Positions 10,756 to 58,222 of a stretch of 64,000 bases of DNA are shown piece after piece. The notes beneath the pieces were generated by a model. That model saw only the letters and a program-made list of their open reading frames with translations, ran no database searches and was not told the DNA's origin. This DNA comes from an uncultured virus (IMG/VR IMGVR_UViG_3300034196_000153). Its lineage: Duplodnaviria; Heunggongvirae; Uroviricota; Caudoviricetes. How positions within the stretch are numbered: the stretch's first letter is position 1; every line of letters begins with the position of its first letter. A program made the position numbers and the translations under genes. The stretch lies in IMG/VR virus record IMGVR_UViG_3300034196_000153; one strand, given 5' to 3'.

Positions 10756-12027
10756 ATGAAACGTAATTATAATATTCATCCATTGTTCAAAGATGACATT
10801 CAACACGCTAAAACATTATTGGCTAAAAAAGGCTATACACTTGATGTAGATCTTTTTACGACGCTTAATGAAAAAAGACTTTCATTGCTTCAAGAAGCAG
10901 AAAGCTATAAAAAAGAAATCAATACGCTCTCAAAGTCTACCCCACGAGACACAGACTTCATTCAAAATATTGCTCGCTCAAAAGAGATGAAAGCTAAACT
11001 TTTGTTGGTTGAACAAGAGTACGTTGTGGCTGAAGAACAATTCGTTGATTACTTCTGTGCTATCCCTAACTTTCCACATGTCAGTGTTCCAGAAGGTGTT
11101 GATGAGCAGGGTAACGTAGAAGTTAAACGTCATCTTGAACCCACTAAGTTTTCACATGATATTAAAGACCATGTGGCATTAGGTGACCGTAAACAGCAAC
11201 TGGATATTAAAGCAGGTGTTGCTCTTTCAGGTAGCCGTTTTATCGTGCTGCGTAATGACATTGCTAAATTGCACCGTGCCTTGATTCAATTTATGTTGGA
11301 CACTCATACCGATGACGGATATCAAGAACACTATGTTCCTTATATTGTGAATGATGACGCTTTGTATGGAACTGGTCAGTTGCCTAAGTTTCAAGAAGAC
11401 CTCTATCAGTTGAAAAACAAAGAGAATGCTTACTTGATCCCAACCGCAGAAGTCCCATTGACAAACTTGTTTGCGGGGCAATTCTTGCCAGAAGCTGACT
11501 TGCCTATTAATATCACTGCTCATACACCTTGCTTCCGTTCAGAAGCTGGCTCATACAGCAAGGATATTGTCGGTCTTATCCGTCAACATCAATTTGAGAA
11601 GGTCGAGCTTGTAAAGATTGTTAAAGCTGATGAATCTTATGTTGAACTTGAAAACATGCTTAATCAGTCAGAGAAGATTTTGCAGTTGCTTAACTTGCCT
11701 TATCGTGTCGTCGCTTTGTGTGGTGGTGATATGGGGTTCTCAGCCGCTAAAACTTATGACATTGAAGTCTGGGTTCCTAGCCAGAACACATATCGTGAGA
11801 TTTCTTCTGTTTCAAACTGTGAAGACTTCCAAGCTCGTAGAATGCTGGCTAAATACAAAACATCAACTGGTAATCATTACGTTCATACATTGAATGGTTC
11901 TGCGTTGGCGGTAGGTCGTTGCTTATTGGCTATCTTGGAAAACTTCCAAAATGAAGATGGATCTGTTAATGTTCCAGAAGTGCTTCAACCTTACATGAGA
12001 AATCAAACAAAAATTTTGGAGCTTTAA
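10756..12027 (+). CDS. serS: Seryl-tRNA synthetase
   Basis: N-terminal coiled coil; GTGQLPKF, LIPTAEVPL, FRSEAGS, GLIRQHQFEKVE, KTYDIEVW, EISSVSNC, HTLNGSALAVGR. Confidence 0.98.
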   Translation: MKRNYNIHPLFKDDIQHAKTLLAKKGYTLDVDLFTTLNEKRLSLLQEAESYKKEINTLSKSTPRDTDFIQNIARSKEMKAKLLLVEQEYVVAEEQFVDYFCAIPNFPHVSVPEGVDEQGNVEVKRHLEPTKFSHDIKDHVALGDRKQQLDIKAGVALSGSRFIVLRNDIAKLHRALIQFMLDTHTDDGYQEHYVPYIVNDDALYGTGQLPKFQEDLYQLKNKENAYLIPTAEVPLTNLFAGQFLPEADLPINITAHTPCFRSEAGSYSKDIVGLIRQHQFEKVELVKIVKADESYVELENMLNQSEKILQLLNLPYRVVALCGGDMGFSAAKTYDIEVWVPSQNTYREISSVSNCEDFQARRMLAKYKTSTGNHYVHTLNGSALAVGRCLLAILENFQNEDGSVNVPEVLQPYMRNQTKILEL

Positions 12028-25261: not shown

Positions 25262-25315
25262 ATGAACGCTTCAAACACATTTCACTTTCAAAAGTCTTTC
25301 ACTGTTCGATATTGA
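25262..25315 (+). promoter_or_regulatory. Possible leader peptide upstream of tyrS (MNASNTFHFQKSFTVRY)
   Basis: AAGGA RBS, 17 codons, between TTGCTT/TAGAAT promoter and tyrS. Confidence 0.4.
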
Positions 25316-25411: not shown

Positions 25412-26671
25412 ATGAACGCATTTATTCAAGAACTCAAACAACGTGGCCTCGTTTCTCAGATGACAGACGAAAGCAAAATTTCAGACCTTATGGATAATGG
25501 TTTGTCTCTATACTGCGGATTTGACCCAACAGCAGAGTCTTTGCATGTGGGTAGTCTTTTGCCATTGATTACTATGCTTCGCTTTAAGAAAGCGGGCCAT
25601 ACTGTGTTCCCATTGATTGGTGGTGCTACCGGCATGATTGGTGACCCTAGCTTTAAAGCACAAGAACGTACTTTGAATGACGCGGAAACCGTTAATCGTT
25701 TCAAAGCAGGTATTGCTGGTCAAATCAAACATATTCTGGGTGATGTAGAACTTGTTGATAACCATGATTGGACTGTTAACCTTTCAGTCATTGATTTCCT
25801 TCGTGATGTGGGTAAGCATTTCTCTGTGAATGCTATGATGAGTAAAGATTCGGTACGTAGCCGCTTGGATCGTGATGATCAAGGTATTTCTTTTACTGAG
25901 TTCTCATACCAGCTCCTGCAGTCAATGGACTTCCATCACTTGATGAAAGAGAAAAACTGCCGTCTTCAATTGGGTGGTAGCGATCAGTGGGGTAACATCA
26001 CTGCTGGTATCGACCTTATCCATCGTAAAGAAGGTAATGATGTCGTCGCCACTGGCTTGACTATTCCATTGTTGACCAAAGCAGATGGCACGAAGTTTGG
26101 TAAAAGTGAAAGTGGTGCGGTTTGGTTGTCCTCAGAAATGACCAATCCTTTTGATTTCTTCCAGTTTTGGTTGAAAGTGGCGGATGCGGATATTCCGAAG
26201 TTCTTCAAAATGCTTTCTTTTAAGTCTATTGAAGAAATTGATGCTATCCTTGAAGCTGATAAAGAACGCACTAAACCGATGGCTCAACAGCTTTTGGCCG
26301 AGGAATTAACCGCTATTGTTCATGGTCAAGCAGCACTTGATTCTGTATTGCGTAACATCAAAGCTTTGTTTGATAACAACTTTGATAGCTTGCAAGAAGA
26401 TGATTTTGTCAATCTTGAAAAGAACGGTATGGTTGCTGTTATTCCTGAGACATTGAATGTGCTTGATTTGATGGTCGCTACTGGTTTGGCTAAGTCGAAA
26501 CGACAAGGCCGAGAGTTTATCCAGAGTGGTGCTGTTCAAGTAAACGGTAACAAGTTGGTAGTCAGCGAGGATGATATGAACGCTCTTGAAATTACAGATT
26601 TCAAGTTTGGTAAATTCGCTGTCTTTCAACGTGGCAAACGAGAGTTCAGATTGATTAAAAAGCCCGCCTAG
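25412..26671 (+). CDS. tyrS: Tyrosyl-tRNA synthetase
   Basis: YCGFDPTAESLHVG (HIGH-like), GGATGMIGDPS, EFSYQLLQ, QLGGSDQWGNI, KFGKS, C-terminal S4-like domain. Confidence 0.98.
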   Translation: MNAFIQELKQRGLVSQMTDESKISDLMDNGLSLYCGFDPTAESLHVGSLLPLITMLRFKKAGHTVFPLIGGATGMIGDPSFKAQERTLNDAETVNRFKAGIAGQIKHILGDVELVDNHDWTVNLSVIDFLRDVGKHFSVNAMMSKDSVRSRLDRDDQGISFTEFSYQLLQSMDFHHLMKEKNCRLQLGGSDQWGNITAGIDLIHRKEGNDVVATGLTIPLLTKADGTKFGKSESGAVWLSSEMTNPFDFFQFWLKVADADIPKFFKMLSFKSIEEIDAILEADKERTKPMAQQLLAEELTAIVHGQAALDSVLRNIKALFDNNFDSLQEDDFVNLEKNGMVAVIPETLNVLDLMVATGLAKSKRQGREFIQSGAVQVNGNKLVVSEDDMNALEITDFKFGKFAVFQRGKREFRLIKKPA

Positions 26672-42241: not shown

Positions 42242-42670
42242 ATGAAAAGTGTTATTTTGTTTCTAGACTTTGATGGCGTGTTTCATCCATTGATGAGCAG
42301 TGGCCTTAAATTCGTGGATCTCCCAAATTTTGAAAATTTTATTCGTAAACATAAAGACCGTTTTGATTTTAAACTGGTGATTAGTAGCACTTGGCGTCGA
42401 GAATATACCTTATCTCAGATTTCCAAATTCTTTTCACCAGACATTGCTCTTTTGCTGGTAGGTGTTACGCCTGTTCTCAATACCATTGGTGACGGTGTTC
42501 GTTATGAAGAAGCACAACAATGGCGTGCCTTCAATGACATGACTTCGCATTGGTTTGCTCTGGATGATGACCATTACGCATGGGATCGCGTTGAACAGCT
42601 TGTTTGGTGTCATGATAAATTTCAAGAGCGTGAAATCGGTATTTTGGAAGACAAACTTAACGCACTTTAA
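42242..42670 (+). CDS. HAD-superfamily phosphatase (Swiss Army Knife RNA-repair-like HAD domain)
   Basis: LFLDFDGV, VISSTWR, GVTP, R..EA..W, ALDD. Confidence 0.85.
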   Translation: MKSVILFLDFDGVFHPLMSSGLKFVDLPNFENFIRKHKDRFDFKLVISSTWRREYTLSQISKFFSPDIALLLVGVTPVLNTIGDGVRYEEAQQWRAFNDMTSHWFALDDDHYAWDRVEQLVWCHDKFQEREIGILEDKLNAL

Positions 42671-43563: not shown

Positions 43564-44025
43564 ATGATTAAAAAAGAATGTGTATTATTTTTGGACTTTG
43601 ATGGAGTTCTCCATTTCTTTTTCCCAGAAGAAAATAGTACCGATGAAGAAAATCAGTTTTTCTATTTTATCCCACAGTTTGAACGCTTTATCAGAGCTTT
43701 TTCTGACAGGGTTAACTTTAAAATTGTGATTTCTAGCACTTGGCGTGACAACAAAACGTTTAATCAACTTAAAGCACCTTTTTCAAAAGATATTCAAGAA
43801 ATGATTGTAGGTGTTACTCCCAATCATTATGATAACAGTGAAGGTAGCCGTTTACGTGAAGCCCAAGAATGGTTAATGGTTAATCAATATAATGGTTCGT
43901 GGATAGCGATTGACGATAATGCTAATATTTGGTATAATGCCCCTGAGTTATTTTTGTGCGAGAATGGTCTTAACCAATCTGTTATTGACGATTTTATTGC
44001 TCGCTTTGACCTATTAAGGAGTTAA
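43564..44025 (+). CDS. HAD-superfamily phosphatase (RNA-repair-like), paralog of 42242
   Basis: LFLDFDGVLH, VISSTWR, GVTP, AIDD. Confidence 0.85.
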   Translation: MIKKECVLFLDFDGVLHFFFPEENSTDEENQFFYFIPQFERFIRAFSDRVNFKIVISSTWRDNKTFNQLKAPFSKDIQEMIVGVTPNHYDNSEGSRLREAQEWLMVNQYNGSWIAIDDNANIWYNAPELFLCENGLNQSVIDDFIARFDLLRS

Positions 44026-53088: not shown

Positions 53089-53937
53089 ATGCACTATATT
53101 AAGTATGTATTAAGCTTTATCTTATTACTGGTATTGGCTGGTTGTAATGATACACCTGATGACGTTCGTCCAACAGCAGATGCAAAAGTCTATTTTGATC
53201 AACAACTGAAAACTACTCTGGCTGCTGCAAAGTCAAAAGAAGACCCTTTTGAAGCTTATCAACTATTGTTAAGGGCTTATTATGGTCTAGGTAATGATAA
53301 GGAAAAACTACTCTATAAAGATGACACTAGAAAGTTATATATTGCTCAATCTGGATTTGTTGTGAACGGCGGCTCAGCACTAGATAATAAACAAGAAGCG
53401 ATTAATAATATGTATGTTTATTTAGATTCTGCTTTGGAAAACGGTAATAAAAAAGCTTTTCTAGAATTATATGAAGGCGAACAATCAGAACCAGCCAACT
53501 TTGGTAATGATATGACAATGAGGCTTAAATCTGATCAATTGCAAACTAAATTCAGCGAAGCTTATAAAAATTTAGTTGAAACACTTTCAGTAGGTGATCC
53601 TATTGATAATGCTCTGATTACAAGCTATGCAAGCCAACTTAAAAATGGTGAGTTCTATCAAAAGAATACAGCTAAGTCAGTTGAATACTATCTCAAACTC
53701 TACCCAGTTGATAAAGTTGTTCCTTTATACTTGATTGGTGTCTATTTGGATATCAATGATTATGAGAATGCTTATTTCTGGAAAGTTCGTTGTATTGATG
53801 CCTGTGATGCTAGATATAAGAAAATTAGTATTGTTAGTCGAAATCTACCTGACTTATTCAGAAAACAGCTAACCAGTGATCAATTTAAAGCTATCGAAGA
53901 AGCTTCCAATGATCCAACAAGAACAAGTTTTAAATAA
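53089..53937 (+). CDS. Lipoprotein with Sel1/TPR-like helical repeats
   Basis: Lipobox LAGC; G....KN..K...YY, D...AYFW patterns. Confidence 0.65.
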   Translation: MHYIKYVLSFILLLVLAGCNDTPDDVRPTADAKVYFDQQLKTTLAAAKSKEDPFEAYQLLLRAYYGLGNDKEKLLYKDDTRKLYIAQSGFVVNGGSALDNKQEAINNMYVYLDSALENGNKKAFLELYEGEQSEPANFGNDMTMRLKSDQLQTKFSEAYKNLVETLSVGDPIDNALITSYASQLKNGEFYQKNTAKSVEYYLKLYPVDKVVPLYLIGVYLDINDYENAYFWKVRCIDACDARYKKISIVSRNLPDLFRKQLTSDQFKAIEEASNDPTRTSFK

Positions 53938-53950
53938 TCTAACATACCGC

Positions 53951-53979
53951 TTGAATTTTTTTAAGCGGGCTGCTATAAT
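53951..53979 (+). promoter_or_regulatory. sigma70 promoter of the Ser/Tyr leader
   Basis: TTGAAT-17 nt-TATAAT with extended TG. Confidence 0.75.
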
Positions 53980-54013
53980 GGATACTATTATTTACTTTGT
54001 GGAGAAATACAAA

Positions 54014-54064
54014 ATGAAACCTACATTTGCTGTATCCTATTATTATTCATCATATTCTAGTTAA
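54014..54064 (+). CDS. Ser/Tyr-rich attenuator leader peptide MKPTFAVSYYYSSYSS
   Basis: GGAG RBS at 54001; last 9 codons are TCC TAT TAT TAT TCA TCA TAT TCT AGT. Confidence 0.85.
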   Translation: MKPTFAVSYYYSSYSS

Positions 54065-54153
54065 CTGACCAGAGTAGAGGTCAGTTATGGCCTCGAATTC
54101 TTGGATAGTAATTATCTTAGACCCTTTGAAGGCCACCTTCAGAGGGTTTTTTT
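54053..54153 (+). promoter_or_regulatory. Transcription attenuator (alternative hairpins plus terminator)
   Basis: Overlapping helices 54053-62/54067-76, 54062-70/54079-87, 54077-83/54088-94, 54088-97/54125-35, terminator 54121-32/54136-47 plus U-tract. Confidence 0.8.
54121..54153 (+). terminator. Rho-independent terminator (attenuator terminator)
   Basis: ACCCTTTGAAGG-CCA-CCTTCAGAGGGT-TTTTTT. Confidence 0.9.
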
Positions 54154-54193
54154 ATGTCCATAGTGGCAGGGTTAAGTTCAACCTAAAACAATG

Positions 54194-54206
54194 TAAGTTA
54201 TTGATT
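54194..54206 (-). promoter_or_regulatory. IHF consensus site
   Basis: Reverse complement AATCAATAACTTA matches WATCAANNNNTTR. Confidence 0.5.
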
Positions 54207-54243
54207 TAAAAAGAAAATAGTTTAAAATAATTTAAAATAGTTG

Positions 54244-54272
54244 TTGACAAAGACGAAAGAAGTTGATAGAAT
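54244..54272 (+). promoter_or_regulatory. Strong sigma70 promoter for the tRNA array
   Basis: TTGACA-17 nt-TAGAAT, extended TG, AT-rich UP region. Confidence 0.8.
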
Positions 54273-54324
54273 GTTAAACATGAAGAGTTGAGAAGAAAAA
54301 CGAAAAACTCTTAGTAACACAAAT

Positions 54325-54412
54325 GGAAGATTGGTCGAGTGGCCGATGGCGTCAGTCTTGAAAACTGAAGGGTGTAACAGCTCCGTGAGTTCGAATCTCA
54401 CATCTTCCTCCA
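54325..54412 (+). tRNA. tRNA-Ser(UGA), copy 1 (U73 discriminator)
   Basis: GGAAGAT/ATCTTCC acceptor, TCAGT-CTTGAAA-ACTGA, long variable arm, TTCGAAT, CCA. Confidence 0.93.
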
Positions 54413-54434
54413 AATTTAGTTTCAAAAGTATCAT

Positions 54435-54518
54435 GGTTAGTTGGCAGAGTGGACGATTGCGGGGGACTGTAAATCCCTTCCGAAAGGCACGGTGGTTCGA
54501 ATCCATCACTAACCACCA
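54435..54518 (+). tRNA. tRNA-Tyr(GUA), copy 1
   Basis: GGTTAGT/ACTAACC, GGGGA-CTGTAAA-TCCCT, A73-CCA. Confidence 0.92.
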
Positions 54519-54540
54519 AATTAGTTGTAAACTGTTTTAT

Positions 54541-54624
54541 GGGAGTTTCGCATAGTGGCCGATTGCACGGGACTGTAAATCCTGCTCGAAAGACTCGGTG
54601 GTTCGAATCCATCAACTCCCACCA
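54541..54624 (+). tRNA. tRNA-Tyr(GUA), copy 2
   Basis: GGGAGTT/AACTCCC, CGGGA-CTGTAAA-TCCTG, A73-CCA. Confidence 0.92.
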
Positions 54625-54649
54625 AATTAGATGTAATAGTAAGAATTAT

Positions 54650-54739
54650 GGACGCCTTTCCTTGTCATCGCTCTGTAAAAGCGACGCCTTAATAAGACAG
54701 GTCGGTTGGCGTGAGGTTCGAATCCTTGGGCGTCCACCA
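54650..54739 (+). ncRNA. Atypical tRNA-Tyr(GUA)-like RNA lacking a D-arm, with an enlarged variable arm
   Basis: GGACGCC/GGCGTCC acceptor, TCGCT-CTGTAAA-AGCGA, TGAGG-TTCGAAT-CCTTG, ACCA; only 11 nt in place of the D-arm. Confidence 0.75.
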
Positions 54740-54760
54740 AATTAGTTGTAAACCGTATAT

Positions 54761-54848
54761 GGAAGCTTGGCCGAGTGGTTTAAGGCAACAGTCTTGAAAA
54801 CTGTCGAGTGTAACAGCTCCGTGAGTTCGAATCCCACAGCTTCCGCCA
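54761..54848 (+). tRNA. tRNA-Ser(UGA), copy 2
   Basis: GGAAGCT/AGCTTCC, ACAGT-CTTGAAA-ACTGT, G73-CCA; one T-stem mismatch. Confidence 0.92.
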
Positions 54849-54874
54849 AATTTAGATGTAACCTGTTTTATTAT

Positions 54875-54958
54875 GGGGGGTTCGCATAGTGGCCGATTGC
54901 ACGGGGCTGTAAACTCTGATCGAAAGACACGGTGGTTCGAATCCATCACCCCTCACCA
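54875..54958 (+). tRNA. tRNA-Tyr(GUA), copy 3
   Basis: GGGGGGT/ACCCCTC, CGGGG-CTGTAAA-CTCTG, A73-CCA. Confidence 0.9.
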
Positions 54959-54971
54959 AATTTAGATTTAT

Positions 54972-55024
54972 GGGAAGTATGTGGCTGTTGTTATGTCGTA
55001 ACAATGGTTAATCGCTACCCACCA
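54972..55024 (+). ncRNA. CCA-ended minihelix-like hairpin (tRNA remnant or mimic)
   Basis: GGGAAGT/GCTACCC acceptor-like stem plus 12 bp hairpin plus ACCA. Confidence 0.5.
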
Positions 55025-55028
55025 ACAT

Positions 55029-55116
55029 GGAAGCGTGGCCGAGCGGTTTAAGGCACTAGTCTTGAAAACTAGCGGATGTAACAGTCCCGTGAGTTCGAAT
55101 CTCACCGCTTCCGCCA
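55029..55116 (+). tRNA. tRNA-Ser(UGA), copy 3
   Basis: GGAAGCG/CGCTTCC, CTAGT-CTTGAAA-ACTAG, G73-CCA. Confidence 0.94.
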
Positions 55117-55132: not shown

Positions 55133-55531
55133 ATGAATAAAGAGCAAGGTGACACATGTGAATCGTTTGCAACCTTTTATTATACATCACTAGGATGTAT
55201 TGTCAGTAAGCCATTAACTCATTCCCCTTATTACGACTTAATTGTTGACACCGATGGGGTATTAAAGAAGGTCGAGTGCAAGAGTTCTAGGCATAAACCT
55301 AATGAAAAATCTTATTTAGTAGAATTAGCTACAAAGGGTGGTAATCAATCTTGGAATAAAGTTGTCAAAAAAATTGACGCTAAAAAAGTTGATGAAATCT
55401 TTATTTTAGACGGTGATGGTAATTATTATGTTTATAACTCTATAGATCTTGATGGTCGAAGAACCGTAAACGTCAATAACACTTTGAAAAGTTTCATGGG
55501 TAATCAACAAAAGCTCACTTCAAAAGTTTAA
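55133..55531 (+). CDS. PD-(D/E)XK endonuclease (group I intron/homing-endonuclease-associated type)
   Basis: G...E.......G..VSKP......YDLIVD......VECKS; GAGGTG RBS right after the last tRNA. Confidence 0.8.
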   Translation: MNKEQGDTCESFATFYYTSLGCIVSKPLTHSPYYDLIVDTDGVLKKVECKSSRHKPNEKSYLVELATKGGNQSWNKVVKKIDAKKVDEIFILDGDGNYYVYNSIDLDGRRTVNVNNTLKSFMGNQQKLTSKV

Positions 55532-57319: not shown

Positions 57320-58222
57320 ATGTACCAATTACAATCATTTGCAAAAAATGAAAAAGGCCGAGACTTCATTGTGGGTGATATACATGGTATGTATGACTCA
57401 TTAATGAAACTTCTCGAATCCGTCAACTTCGATAAAAACATTGATAGATTATTTTCTGTGGGTGATTTAATAGATCGTGGACCAAAATCAATGGAGGTTC
57501 TTTATCTTAATAACCAGAGTTGGTTTTTCGCTGTATTGGGTAATCATGAAACCATGTTGCTCACTGGTCATTTATCGTATTCCAAAGATTGGGTTACGCA
57601 TTTAAGCAAGAAAGAAAAAGAAACATGTCTGGATATTATCAAGACCTTACCGATTGCTATTGAAATAGAAACCAGTCTTGGCCCTATTGGATTGGTTCAT
57701 GCCCAAGTCCCTACCCAGTTCAATGATTGGAATGAGTTCAAACACTATCTCACTGCAGCTAACCTATCCTATGAAATGAGTTCTATTAATGATTCTGGTA
57801 GTGTGATTAGAGATGCGTTGTGGGGTAGGAAGCGTATTTACAGAGAGTTGAAAAAGAATGGTACCGCATTTGCCAGAAAAGCTTACATCAAATTTATTAA
57901 AGATGGCTTATGGAATAGAACGACCTTATACAGAATCATTACGACCAGAAAAACATTGCCTTACATTAAACATGGGCTATCATTCTCATTCCGATACATC
58001 ATCGAAAAATTTAAACGTAAATTACACCCACAAAGTTATATCGACAATATTGCCTATACCTTTCATGGACACACCCCCGTTAAGAAACCATTACTATTAG
58101 GTAATCAGTTCTTTATAGATACGGGAGCTGTGTATGGGATGAAGAAAAACAAACAAGGGTCTTTAACCATGATTGAAATTTGTGATGATTTAAAAGTTCA
58201 CACCTTACTCATTGACCAATAA
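57320..58222 (+). CDS. Ser/Thr protein phosphatase (lambda NinI/PphA-like metallophosphoesterase)
   Basis: GDIHG, GDLIDRG, GNHE, HGHTP, IDTG. Confidence 0.92.
   Translation: MYQLQSFAKNEKGRDFIVGDIHGMYDSLMKLLESVNFDKNIDRLFSVGDLIDRGPKSMEVLYLNNQSWFFAVLGNHETMLLTGHLSYSKDWVTHLSKKEKETCLDIIKTLPIAIEIETSLGPIGLVHAQVPTQFNDWNEFKHYLTAANLSYEMSSINDSGSVIRDALWGRKRIYRELKKNGTAFARKAYIKFIKDGLWNRTTLYRIITTRKTLPYIKHGLSFSFRYIIEKFKRKLHPQSYIDNIAYTFHGHTPVKKPLLLGNQFFIDTGAVYGMKKNKQGSLTMIEICDDLKVHTLLIDQ

Follow-up and report, generated by a model that had tools for sequence, protein, structure and literature searches.

A putative Ser/Tyr leader-peptide attenuator in front of a tRNA-Ser and tRNA-Tyr gene array

What could a short leader ORF ending in a run of Ser and Tyr codons, and followed by an intrinsic terminator, be doing ahead of a block of tRNA genes made up of tRNA-Ser and tRNA-Tyr only? 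We addressed this question in a DNA stretch of 64,000 nucleotides (the window), in which the leader, the tRNA array and the genes given with coordinates below all lie on the plus strand. The array comprises six genes (54325-55116), found by both ARAGORN and Rfam and all with an encoded CCA, in the order tRNA-Ser(UGA) (54325-54412), tRNA-Tyr(GUA) (54435-54518), tRNA-Tyr(GUA) (54541-54624), tRNA-Ser(UGA) (54761-54848), tRNA-Tyr(GUA) (54875-54958) and tRNA-Ser(UGA) (55029-55116), with RF00005 matches of 47.6-59.8 bits (threshold 29). With three copies of each, these are the only isotypes present, and the gap from the T-run of the terminator to the first tRNA is 171 nt, which bears out the first-pass annotation, where an array with UGA and GUA as sole anticodons had been placed about 170 nt past the terminator. 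Copies of the same isotype share 66-76 of 84-88 aligned columns and are thus not recent duplicates. Directly 3' of the last tRNA, with no terminator between them, lies a co-oriented PD-(D/E)XK endonuclease gene (55133-55531; Pfam PF11645, 2.5e-11), which also matches PDB 2ost_A, a 'putative endonuclease' (1.6e-4), and which has a terminator at its 3' side (55530-54).

Two further elements lie among the tRNA genes. The first (54651-54742) is a non-canonical tRNA-like element with an acceptor stem, a CUGUAAA loop containing GUA, a T arm and an ACCA end, but without a D stem; ARAGORN finds it only with mitochondrial-type settings, and 91 of its 92 columns are identical in L002, one of the two relatives described below. 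The second (54971-55026) is a minihelix with a GUC-containing loop and an ACCA end (fold z-score -3.0), in which two pairs differ from those of L002 in both of their bases.

The leader unit starts with a promoter, P1 (53951-53979), of the form TTGAAT-17-TATAAT with an extended -10 element (TGcTATAAT), which agrees with the consensus at 10 of 12 positions and is found where it had first been proposed. A Shine-Dalgarno GGAG (54001-54004), with the ATG 9 nt downstream, precedes the ORF MKPTFAVSYYYSSYSS (54014-54064, 16 codons plus TAA), and the predicted leader transcript, of ~168 nt and starting from P1, therefore carries a short ORF with its own ribosome-binding site and start codon. The last nine codons (54035-54061), TCC TAT TAT TAT TCA TCA TAT TCT AGT, form an uninterrupted Ser/Tyr run, with the ribosome-binding site and the codons exactly as claimed at first. 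Eight of these nine codons (TAT x4, TCA x2, TCC and TCT) belong to the families of the array's two anticodons, and the last one, AGT, is outside the reading range of the array tRNA-Ser(UGA). Between the terminator and the array, after a spacer with A-tracts (54154-54243), there is a second promoter, P2 (54244-54272; TTGACA-17-TAGAAT with TG), matching 11 of 12 consensus positions, as the first-pass annotation had also noticed.

In order to judge how unusual these elements are, we compared them with the rest of the window and with shuffled sequences. The leader run is the sole run of at least six residues containing both Ser and Tyr in the six frames of the whole window. Runs of at least nine were found somewhere in the window for 14 of the 190 amino-acid pairs; the run alone is thus not rare, and the unlikely part is its identity and its place. 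As a control, a short YYYSSYS-type pattern was searched in viral contigs, and none of the 80 loci had a tRNA within 1200 nt. Consensus promoter matches number 18 in the window and 16.9 +/- 4.8 in shuffles, so that the support for P1 and P2 comes from their conservation and not from the match count. A 40-codon ORF (54087-54209, after GAGG) was also considered as a gene and rejected, since it carries indels of +1, -1 and +1 in L001, the other relative, and spans the terminator.

The intrinsic terminator, helix E:F (3:4 in the four-segment notation), lies at 54119-54153, between the leader ORF and the downstream genes, and is kept in both relatives. The hairpin and the U-tract described at first are present, the T-run (T7) extending to 54153, and the stem, given earlier as 12 bp, has 14 pairs (54119-54149) around a 3-nt loop (-19.7 kcal/mol). 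Upstream of it, the minimum-energy fold contains a long hairpin (1:2, the anti-antiterminator; 54039-54112), of -23.0 kcal/mol including B:C, which is built from stem I (54039-49 with 54102-12), stem II (54054-60 with 54092-98) and the B:C tip (54062-70 with 54079-87, -12.0 kcal/mol). The fold that combines this hairpin with the terminator has a z-score of -4.25. Two alternatives compete with these structures: the hairpin C:D (GAGGTCA/TGGCCTC, 54077-54094, -9.5 kcal/mol), with an ensemble probability of ~0.30 in the full leader, and the antiterminator D:E (2:3; 54088-97 with 54125-35, -16.5 kcal/mol), which uses 11 bases of the terminator 5' arm.

Folding of successive RNA ends reproduced each of the five helices (A:B, B:C, C:D, D:E and E:F) put forward by the first-pass annotation. 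In the RNA ending at 54100 the minimum-energy fold has A:B and C:D, in those ending at 54112-54130 B:C forms within the long hairpin, in those ending at 54135-40 D:E is the minimum-energy fold with or without a modelled ribosome, and from 54145 onwards the E:F terminator forms. The Tyr/Ser codons at 54039-60 pair with 54092-54112, which contains the greater part of segment D; stalling of a ribosome on these codons would thus free D for D:E pairing. This predicted pairing of the codon strand is the classical four-segment layout (1:2, 2:3, 3:4), closer to the classical arrangement than first described, with the regulatory codons located, in silico, in the strand that sequesters the partner of the antiterminator.

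Folding with a modelled ribosome, which had been suggested as a check, gave 2:3 when the ribosome was placed on the Ser/Tyr codons, before the terminator 3' arm emerges, and the snapshot fold with the ribosome at the stop codon is likewise 2:3. At equilibrium the terminator is favoured over the antiterminator by 3.7-10.8 kcal/mol for every modelled ribosome position. Any discrimination between the two states would therefore have to be kinetic.

The claim of a ribosome-stalling attenuator is partly supported, by the architecture, the codon-strand pairing and the conserved leader, whereas the antiterminator taken alone is unremarkable, because one of at least 10 pairs was reached in 142 of 600 shuffles. 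In a separate shuffle set its strength was matched in 46 of 500 cases by pairs and in 31 of 500 by energy. The joint switch logic, i.e., an antiterminator of at least 10 pairs with the ORF codons sequestering its partner, occurred in 18 of 600 shuffles (3%).

The evidence from conservation rests on three sequences, the window and two diverged metagenome relatives, L002 and the more distant L001. The leader is 94-100% identical, compared with 64-70% for the flanking genes. In L002 the peptide is the same as in the window, with one synonymous change, P1 is kept (TTGAAT-17-TATAAT), and identical columns amount to 30 of 30 over the Ser/Tyr codons and stop (54035-54064), 53 of 54 from the stop to the terminator, 33 of 35 in the terminator, where an AG to GA swap keeps both pairs as U-A/U-G, and 84 of 90 in the spacer 5' of P2. 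The corresponding values are 187 of 293 for the upstream gene, 281 of 399 for the endonuclease gene and 56 to 76 of 84 for the tRNA-Tyr genes, and the tRNA order is that of the window array.

L001 is the more informative comparison for the ORF. Its leader, MKTIFVTSSYYYSSYSS, has a diverged N-terminus, with the residue changed at four of the six codons after the ATG, while the Ser/Tyr run and the stop codon are identical except for an in-frame TCA insertion, the sole indel of the ORF, which lengthens the run to 10. The Shine-Dalgarno sequence is AGGAG, 8 nt from the ATG, in otherwise diverged sequence, P1 is kept as TTGTAA-17-TATAAT with TG in diverged surroundings, and the terminator is kept with 13 pairs and a loop deletion. 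Both P2 hexamers are present in L001 and L002, although the L001 spacer differs at most positions, and P2 is probably a working promoter, judging from this pattern. In our view, the leader unit shows the kind of conservation that a translated leader should have.

At the level of RNA structure, all cells of the long hairpin are paired in the three sequences, with two one-sided U-A/U-G changes in stem I, the antiterminator sites show no sequence variation among the window, L001 and L002, the four leader substitutions at paired positions all keep pairing, and the two leader indels affect only a loop or the end of a stem. No pair of the leader is changed on both sides in these three sequences, which thus contain no compensatory pairs, and the shuffle control for pairing variation gave 500 of 500, i.e., no discrimination with three sequences. 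Contigs from four public runs also cover the leader, differing from the window by 1 letter (X18 record 9, 53948-54173), 3 letters (X17 record 1, 54032-54269), 12 letters (X8 record 17, 53880-54252) and 23 letters (X9 record 25, 53880-54421).

Part of this conservation could be read in another manner. P1, the ORF and the terminator may form an independent small gene that produces its own 168-nt RNA, acting as a 16-residue peptide or as a small RNA, with the array driven by P2 alone. The unit does have its own promoter and a strong terminator, which is favoured at equilibrium in all models, and P2 is conserved and stronger than P1 by consensus. In addition, synonymous sites and the stretch 3' of the stop codon are conserved, which points to a constraint at the RNA level, one that a structured small RNA would share. 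However, a small gene leaves unexplained why the conserved part of the peptide is made up of precisely the two amino acids whose tRNAs form the neighbouring array, and why the L001 indel adds one more Ser codon. It must also contend with the unit staying joined to the array in three genomes although both flanks change, and with the codons being paired to the segment that competes for the terminator. We consider the small gene unlikely.

The terminator could, alternatively, be a plain insulator that blocks upstream transcription, in which case P1 and the ORF would be due to chance, and the conservation to the P2 region or to copying of the module. A co-directional gene ends at 53937 and no other terminator precedes 54119 in the window, promoter-like sites are equally common in shuffles, and the array is adjoined by a homing-endonuclease-like gene. 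Moreover, the stretch from ~54137 to 54300 has other copies elsewhere in the same samples (contigs of the four runs), suggesting that parts of the module have been copied around. These other copies of the P2 module, however, start only at ~54137-46 and hence lack the leader. The gene upstream of the unit in L001 is in divergent orientation, so the terminator cannot belong to it, yet P1, the Shine-Dalgarno sequence, the ATG, the frame and the terminator have all survived there. Finally, neither the endonuclease gene nor three of the six tRNAs are as well conserved as the leader, which uniform recent copying does not account for. A plain insulator appears quite improbable to us.

An attenuator that depends on leader translation can be compared with well-characterized systems. 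In the 381-nt stretch searched, no leader family reached the Rfam gathering threshold, the best sub-threshold matches being His_leader (RF00514; 32.2 bits, E 0.0015) and Phe_leader (17.1); with 32.2 bits against a threshold of 49, the leader is not a member of the His_leader family by sequence. In its organization it shares with the enterobacterial amino-acid attenuators (hisL/His_leader, trpL, pheL, thrL, leuL and ilvL) a promoter-proximal short ORF with a run of regulatory codons, the placement of these codons in segment 1 of a series of helices, here predicted, 1:2, 2:3 and 3:4, whose last hairpin is an intrinsic terminator, as well as a peptide with a variable N-terminus and a fixed regulatory run. 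In contrast to the enterobacterial attenuators, which regulate biosynthetic enzymes, the Ser/Tyr leader precedes tRNA and endonuclease genes, would sense two amino acids, which are those of the array isotypes, and is followed by a second conserved promoter after the terminator. To our knowledge, all known leader-peptide attenuators regulate genes that make or charge the sensed amino acid, whereas here six tRNAs and a PD-(D/E)XK endonuclease gene are found downstream.

The pheM leader of pheST is the case in which attenuation controls an aminoacyl-tRNA synthetase operon and slow decoding raises decoding capacity. The product in that case is the charging synthetase, whereas the output of the Ser/Tyr leader would be the tRNA itself. 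The window does encode a seryl-tRNA synthetase (SerRS, 10756-12027; Pfam and NCBIfam TIGR00414, 3.5e-146) and a tyrosyl-tRNA synthetase (TyrRS, 25412-26671; Pfam and NCBIfam TIGR00234, 8.6e-116), the latter with its closest relatives in viral contigs at 38-41%, but, unlike pheST, neither gene has such a leader. A Ser/Tyr leader was sought ahead of both and rejected: upstream of SerRS there is a promoter only, and upstream of TyrRS a 17-codon ORF containing a single Tyr, where both a terminator and an Rfam match are lacking.

T-box riboswitches provide a different precedent, as they also report the state of one tRNA species through a choice between terminator and antiterminator. Uncharged tRNA is bound by the T-box itself, and an ORF is not required. 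If the leader worked in this manner, as a translation-independent switch sensing tRNA directly, the ORF would be incidental. The terminator and antiterminator alternatives do fold without a ribosome, and segment D starts with UGGC, the complement of the GCCA with which the array tRNA-Ser ends. We nevertheless regard such a mechanism as very improbable, as no T-box or other riboswitch family matched in Rfam even at E up to 10, T-box leaders are much longer, and the leader has a ribosome-binding site and an ORF whose Shine-Dalgarno sequence, ATG and frame are conserved in L001, pointing to translation.

Extra tRNA genes that supply a possibly limiting tRNA-Tyr are also known from phage T5, whose tRNA-Tyr counters retron-Eco7 PtuAB; as the system is described there, the tRNA is made abundantly from a strong promoter, with no sensor (PMC11555353). 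The window differs from that description in the addition of a sensor-like leader. A possible Ser/Tyr-specific threat from bacterial Schlafen nucleases was weighed and set aside, the targets listed for them being Lys, Met and phage Ala tRNAs.

Searches for related loci gave the following picture. No phage hallmark gene was found in the 64-kb window, and relatives lie on contigs of 0.6 to 1.86 Mb, so that the phage and anti-defence framing offered at first is at most tentative. No relatives of the flanking proteins were detected in viral contigs (both proteins searched). An exact 33-mer of the leader is absent from viral contigs, a 22-mer of the spacer is absent from both viral contigs and species genomes, and a peptide-degenerate leader pattern had no match in species genomes. 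In a blastn search against phage records only the tRNAs matched, and in Salmonella phage 7t3, whose adjacent tRNA-Ser and tRNA-Tyr genes gave one of the stronger matches, this gene pair is not preceded by a Ser/Tyr leader. Leader-peptide attenuation is known for amino-acid genes, and we found no description of it for tRNA genes.

From the sequence features and the folding models together, we lean towards the leader being a ribosome-mediated (leader-peptide) transcription attenuator that regulates tRNA genes, and hold this to be somewhat better than an even proposition. Such a leader probably raises transcription of the Ser and Tyr tRNAs when Ser/Tyr codons are read slowly. With ample Ser-tRNA(UGA) and Tyr-tRNA(GUA), the ribosome would reach the TAA at 54062 and cover B, allowing C to pair with D, and after its release 1:2 would reform; either way the terminator would form and the P1 transcript would end at 54153. 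If TAT or TCN codons were decoded slowly, the ribosome would stall within 54035-54061, occupying segment 1 and leaving segment 2 free, and the antiterminator 2:3 would form before the terminator 3' arm is made. RNA polymerase would then pass P2 and go on to transcribe all six tRNA genes together with the endonuclease gene. P2 would provide a basal supply of the array, to which the attenuator would add P1 and upstream-derived transcripts when the array products are short, so that the feedback would act on the supply of tRNA and not on that of amino acids. The early caveat that P2 turns attenuation into a boost rather than a gate gains support from its hexamers, which are conserved while the L001 spacer diverges; since P2 is conserved, attenuation would add to array transcription and not gate it, and, P2 being located past the terminator but ahead of the array, the regulation may have a narrow dynamic range.

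A broader reading, which we put forward tentatively and consider on balance doubtful, is that a mobile or viral genome may carry a self-contained module for Ser/Tyr decoding, with the leader as its sensor. The leader would measure the speed at which TAT and TCN codons are read and would raise transcription of three diverged isodecoders of each tRNA when the host tRNA-Ser or tRNA-Tyr is damaged or runs low, as might happen under attack by a tRNA-targeting nuclease. The same 64 kb, which also encode RNA-repair-type HAD and Pnkp-like phosphatase proteins, would then supply these two together with SerRS and TyrRS, and the two conserved tRNA-like elements could be decoys or processing signals. If this reading holds, the locus would be an instance of a wider, so far undescribed rule, by which codon-matched leaders gate accessory tRNA blocks, often of the long-variable-arm Leu/Ser/Tyr set.

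In the attenuators known to us, the feedback acts either on a synthetase or on the supply of amino acids, and one whose output is the tRNAs that decode its own codons would be a direct homeostat of decoding capacity. If true, this would account for the silence of accessory or viral tRNA blocks until they are needed, would provide a testable link between tRNA-depleting immunity and its counter-measures, and would offer synthetic biology a compact natural sensor for the supply of a chosen tRNA.

The candidate leader ORF lies on the + strand from ATG 54014 to TAA 54062-64, encodes MKPTFAVSYYYSSYSS, and closes with nine codons for Ser or Tyr (TCC TAT TAT TAT TCA TCA TAT TCT AGT). It is preceded by promoter P1 (53951-79; TTGAAT, 17 nt and TATAAT, with TG before the -10) and a Shine-Dalgarno GGAG (54001-04), and is followed on the same strand by a terminator hairpin of 14 pairs (54119-49) with seven T after it, a terminator-like site with only one counterpart in 4 kb, and by a second promoter, P2 (54244-72; TTGACA, 17 nt and TAGAAT, with TG), placed between the terminator and the tRNA array (54325-55116). 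The promoters, ribosome-binding site, Ser/Tyr ORF, terminator and array described in the first-pass annotation were thus all confirmed in the sequence. Matches to the promoter consensus are not enriched over shuffled sequence, and those at P1 and P2 carry weight because they are conserved in relatives, not through their frequency. Translated in all six frames, the 64 kb hold no run of at least six residues containing both S and Y apart from SYYYSSYSS, and 14 of the 190 residue pairs reach runs of nine somewhere in the window; a Ser/Tyr run alone is not rare, and the unlikely part is this residue pair at this place. A palindrome, CCGCTT-N10-AAGCGG (53947-53968), overlaps the P1 -35; it is present in L002, one of two metagenome relatives of the locus, with a G-U-compatible change, is missing from the other, L001, and may serve as an operator or form a weak hairpin. 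A 40-codon ORF from 54087 was rejected as a gene, as it suffers three frame shifts in L001.

The MFE of 53986-54160 is -49.1 kcal/mol (z-score -4.25 against shuffles), and the fold consists of a long hairpin (54039-54112) and the terminator. The hairpin, on the + strand, is built from stem I (54039-49 with 54102-12), stem II (54054-60 with 54092-98) and a tip corresponding to helix B:C (54062-70 with 54079-87), its 5' strand being formed by the Tyr/Ser codons and its 3' strand containing segment D. All the helices named in the earlier annotation were recovered in the folds, stem I being missing from that list, and its addition gives the classical layout of four competing segments. In a series of growing lengths, the RNA ending at 54100 folds as A:B plus C:D, those ending at 54112-30 as the long hairpin, those ending at 54135-40 as the antiterminator D:E (54088-97 with 54125-35), and those from 54145 on as terminator plus long hairpin. 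The computed energies are -23.0 kcal/mol for the long hairpin (-12.0 for B:C alone), -9.5 for C:D, -16.5 for the antiterminator and -19.7 for the terminator.

It had been proposed that stalling on Ser/Tyr codons permits the antiterminator, whereas full translation leads to termination. In folds with ribosome constraints, the antiterminator precedes the 3' arm of the terminator for a stall at any Ser/Tyr codon, and a ribosome at the stop codon gives the antiterminator too. At equilibrium the terminator is ahead of the antiterminator by 3.7-10.8 kcal/mol at every modelled ribosome position, and together these two results imply that the choice would have to be kinetic. In the trp attenuator the choice of fold is kinetic. 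An antiterminator of equal quality arises commonly by chance, in 46 of 500 shuffles when judged on pairs, in 31 of 500 when judged on energy, and in 142 of 600 in a second shuffle control; the full logic, in which the ORF codons sequester the antiterminator's partner, arose in 18/600.

The window's lineage was found in none of the phage records, viral contigs or species genomes searched. Metagenome contigs were searched with a pattern back-translated from the leader peptide, which yielded the two loci L001 and L002. L002 has the same tRNA order as the window, and identical columns between the two amount to 187/293 in the upstream gene, 43/48 in the P1 region, 47/49 in the 5' UTR and N-terminal codons, 30/30 in the Ser/Tyr codons and stop, 53/54 from the stop to the terminator, 33/35 in the terminator, 84/90 in the spacer, 76/84, 56/84 and 68/84 in the three tRNA-Tyr genes, and 281/399 in the endonuclease gene. 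On this alignment, conservation of the leader equals that of the best tRNAs and lies far above that of the coding flanks, a pattern for which uniform recent copying of the module fails to account.

L001 is more distant and also more informative, with heavy divergence 5' of the Ser/Tyr run, and its leader peptide is MKTIFVTSSYYYSSYSS. Despite the surrounding divergence, it retains the -35 (TTGTAA), the 17-nt spacer, TG-TATAAT, AGGAG and the ATG; four of the six N-terminal codons following the ATG are altered, an in-frame TCA insertion supplies a tenth Ser/Tyr codon, and the stretch from the run through the T-tract shows just two substitutions plus two indels. Because the gene 5' of the leader is divergent in L001, the terminator there does not close an upstream operon, and the unit requires a promoter of its own. 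Two remaining rivals, a free-standing small gene and a plain insulating terminator, leave codon identity and conserved translation signals, taken together, unexplained. Across the three sequences, pairing holds in 119 of 119 cells of the 40 pairs, with one-sided change (U-A/U-G) in four pairs and two-sided change in none; all four substitutions at paired positions preserve pairing, and of the two indels one is in the terminator loop and the other at the end of stem I. The variation in the leader is consistent with the predicted fold but does not amount to covariation. Both P2 hexamers are retained in the window, L001 and L002, whereas the P2 spacer differs in L001, the pattern expected where a promoter is functional.

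Viral contigs contain 81 occurrences of a shortened version of the motif, and none of the 80 loci examined has a tRNA within 1200 nt, which indicates that the link between leader and tRNAs is no by-product of the motif. Six viral contigs (L029, L047, L066, L067, L071 and L077), five of them from a single metagenome, carry nearly the same 18-codon frame (LSCYYYSSYSCDDGRYSK and variants), with no tRNA close by; it is a repeated element that bears no relation to the leader. In Rfam, only the tRNAs exceeded threshold and no family did so for the leader, the best sub-threshold matches on the leader stretch being His_leader (32.2 bits, threshold 49) and Phe_leader (17.1); T-box gave no match there, even below threshold. 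The third remaining rival, an RNA that senses tRNA directly, likewise fails to account for the codon identity in combination with the conserved translation signals.

We consider it somewhat likelier than otherwise that the element is a ribosome-read attenuator which, under slow decoding of Ser/Tyr codons, boosts a Ser/Tyr tRNA operon instead of gating it. The reading of the first-pass annotation is supported in part: the attenuator architecture is present, and boosting, which its own caveat had allowed, is favoured over gating. In its mode of working the leader would resemble the his- and trp-class attenuators, from which it differs in having tRNA genes as output and a second promoter, and it is no sequence member of any Rfam leader family. 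Full-text searches, whose coverage largely leaves out subscription journals, turned up no description of a leader-peptide attenuator ahead of tRNA genes, in agreement with the earlier remark that no attenuator with such an output was known.

The array holds six tRNA genes, three Ser(UGA) and three Tyr(GUA), with no further isotype, as ARAGORN and Rfam agree. Among themselves, the Tyr copies are identical in 66-74 of 84-87 aligned columns and the Ser copies in 68-76 of 88, so the three copies of each tRNA are not recent duplicates. The first tRNA-Tyr shares a 40-nt identical run, from anticodon arm to T arm, with the tRNA-Tyr of the giant Salmonella phage 7t3. A tRNA-like element (54651-54742) has an acceptor stem, a CUGUAAA (GUA) loop, a T arm and ACCA, lacks a D stem, and was not called by standard ARAGORN or Rfam; its identity to L002 (91/92 columns) exceeds that of the true tRNA-Tyr genes. 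A 56-nt minihelix (54971-55026; ACCA end, GUC-containing loop, fold z-score -3.0) differs from its L002 counterpart by two-sided changes in two base pairs and is thus a structured RNA under selection. Directly 3' of the last tRNA, with no terminator in between, is a PD-(D/E)XK endonuclease gene (55133-55531; PF11645) that has its own terminator (55530-54) and is probably co-transcribed with the array. Its sole solved relative, a weak match, is PDB 2ost_A, which we take to be the tRNA-intron homing endonuclease I-Ssp6803I. Additional diverged copies of the stretch containing the spacer and P2 (54137-54300) occur on other contigs of the same samples, in four public runs, and one of these copies runs on into a tRNA-Ser; apparently, these genomes reuse the P2 module at other places.

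As wider context, the same 64 kb encode a seryl-tRNA synthetase (10756-12027) and a tyrosyl-tRNA synthetase (25412-26671) amid genes without a family, and a leader like that of the array is absent at both. A 17-codon ORF with a ribosome-binding site (25262-25315; MNASNTFHFQKSFTVRY) falls in the interval from a promoter-like site to the TyrRS start; with its single Tyr codon and its lack of a terminator, it was rejected as an attenuator by the tests used. Two HAD_SAK_2 ('Swiss army knife RNA repair') proteins (42242-42670 and 43564-44025) and a metallophosphatase weakly resembling the Pnkp phosphatase domain (57320-58222) suggest an RNA-repair theme near the tRNA module. NUDIX, MazG-like, MYG1 and nucleoside deoxyribosyltransferase proteins are also encoded, and Gram-negative-type signal or lipoprotein peptides are predicted in several proteins. 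About 13 of the 76 ORFs tested have a significant Pfam family, and much of the window is made up of eleven families of tandem or nearby paralogues with 2-4 members each, many of the tandem ones without any family.

On the phage side, the gene content looks like the accessory region of a large phage, and there is the 40-nt run shared with the tRNA-Tyr of phage 7t3. On the other side, no phage hallmark gene was found within the window, and several proteins have the Gram-negative-type signal peptides noted above. TyrRS relatives at 94-97% identity, the closest ones, are on contigs reaching 229 kb, those at 79-81% identity on contigs reaching 0.6 and 1.5 Mb, and the L002 relative of the gene neighbourhood on a metagenome contig of 1,859,102 bases (1.86 Mb). 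Such sizes exceed those of any phage known to us, and the element may therefore form part of a small, AT-rich cellular genome or be integrated in one. In one public run, its contigs are covered to roughly the depth of other contigs carrying the P2 module. PtuAB of retron-Eco7 depletes tRNA-Tyr, and T5 counters this depletion with its own tRNA-Tyr, according to PMC11555353, which bears out the targeting of tRNA-Tyr cited in the first-pass annotation. With the evidence divided between phage and cell, we offer an anti-defence rationale for the array as a hypothesis. On the attenuator reading, slow decoding of Ser or Tyr codons would act through the leader to raise transcription of the tRNA operon.
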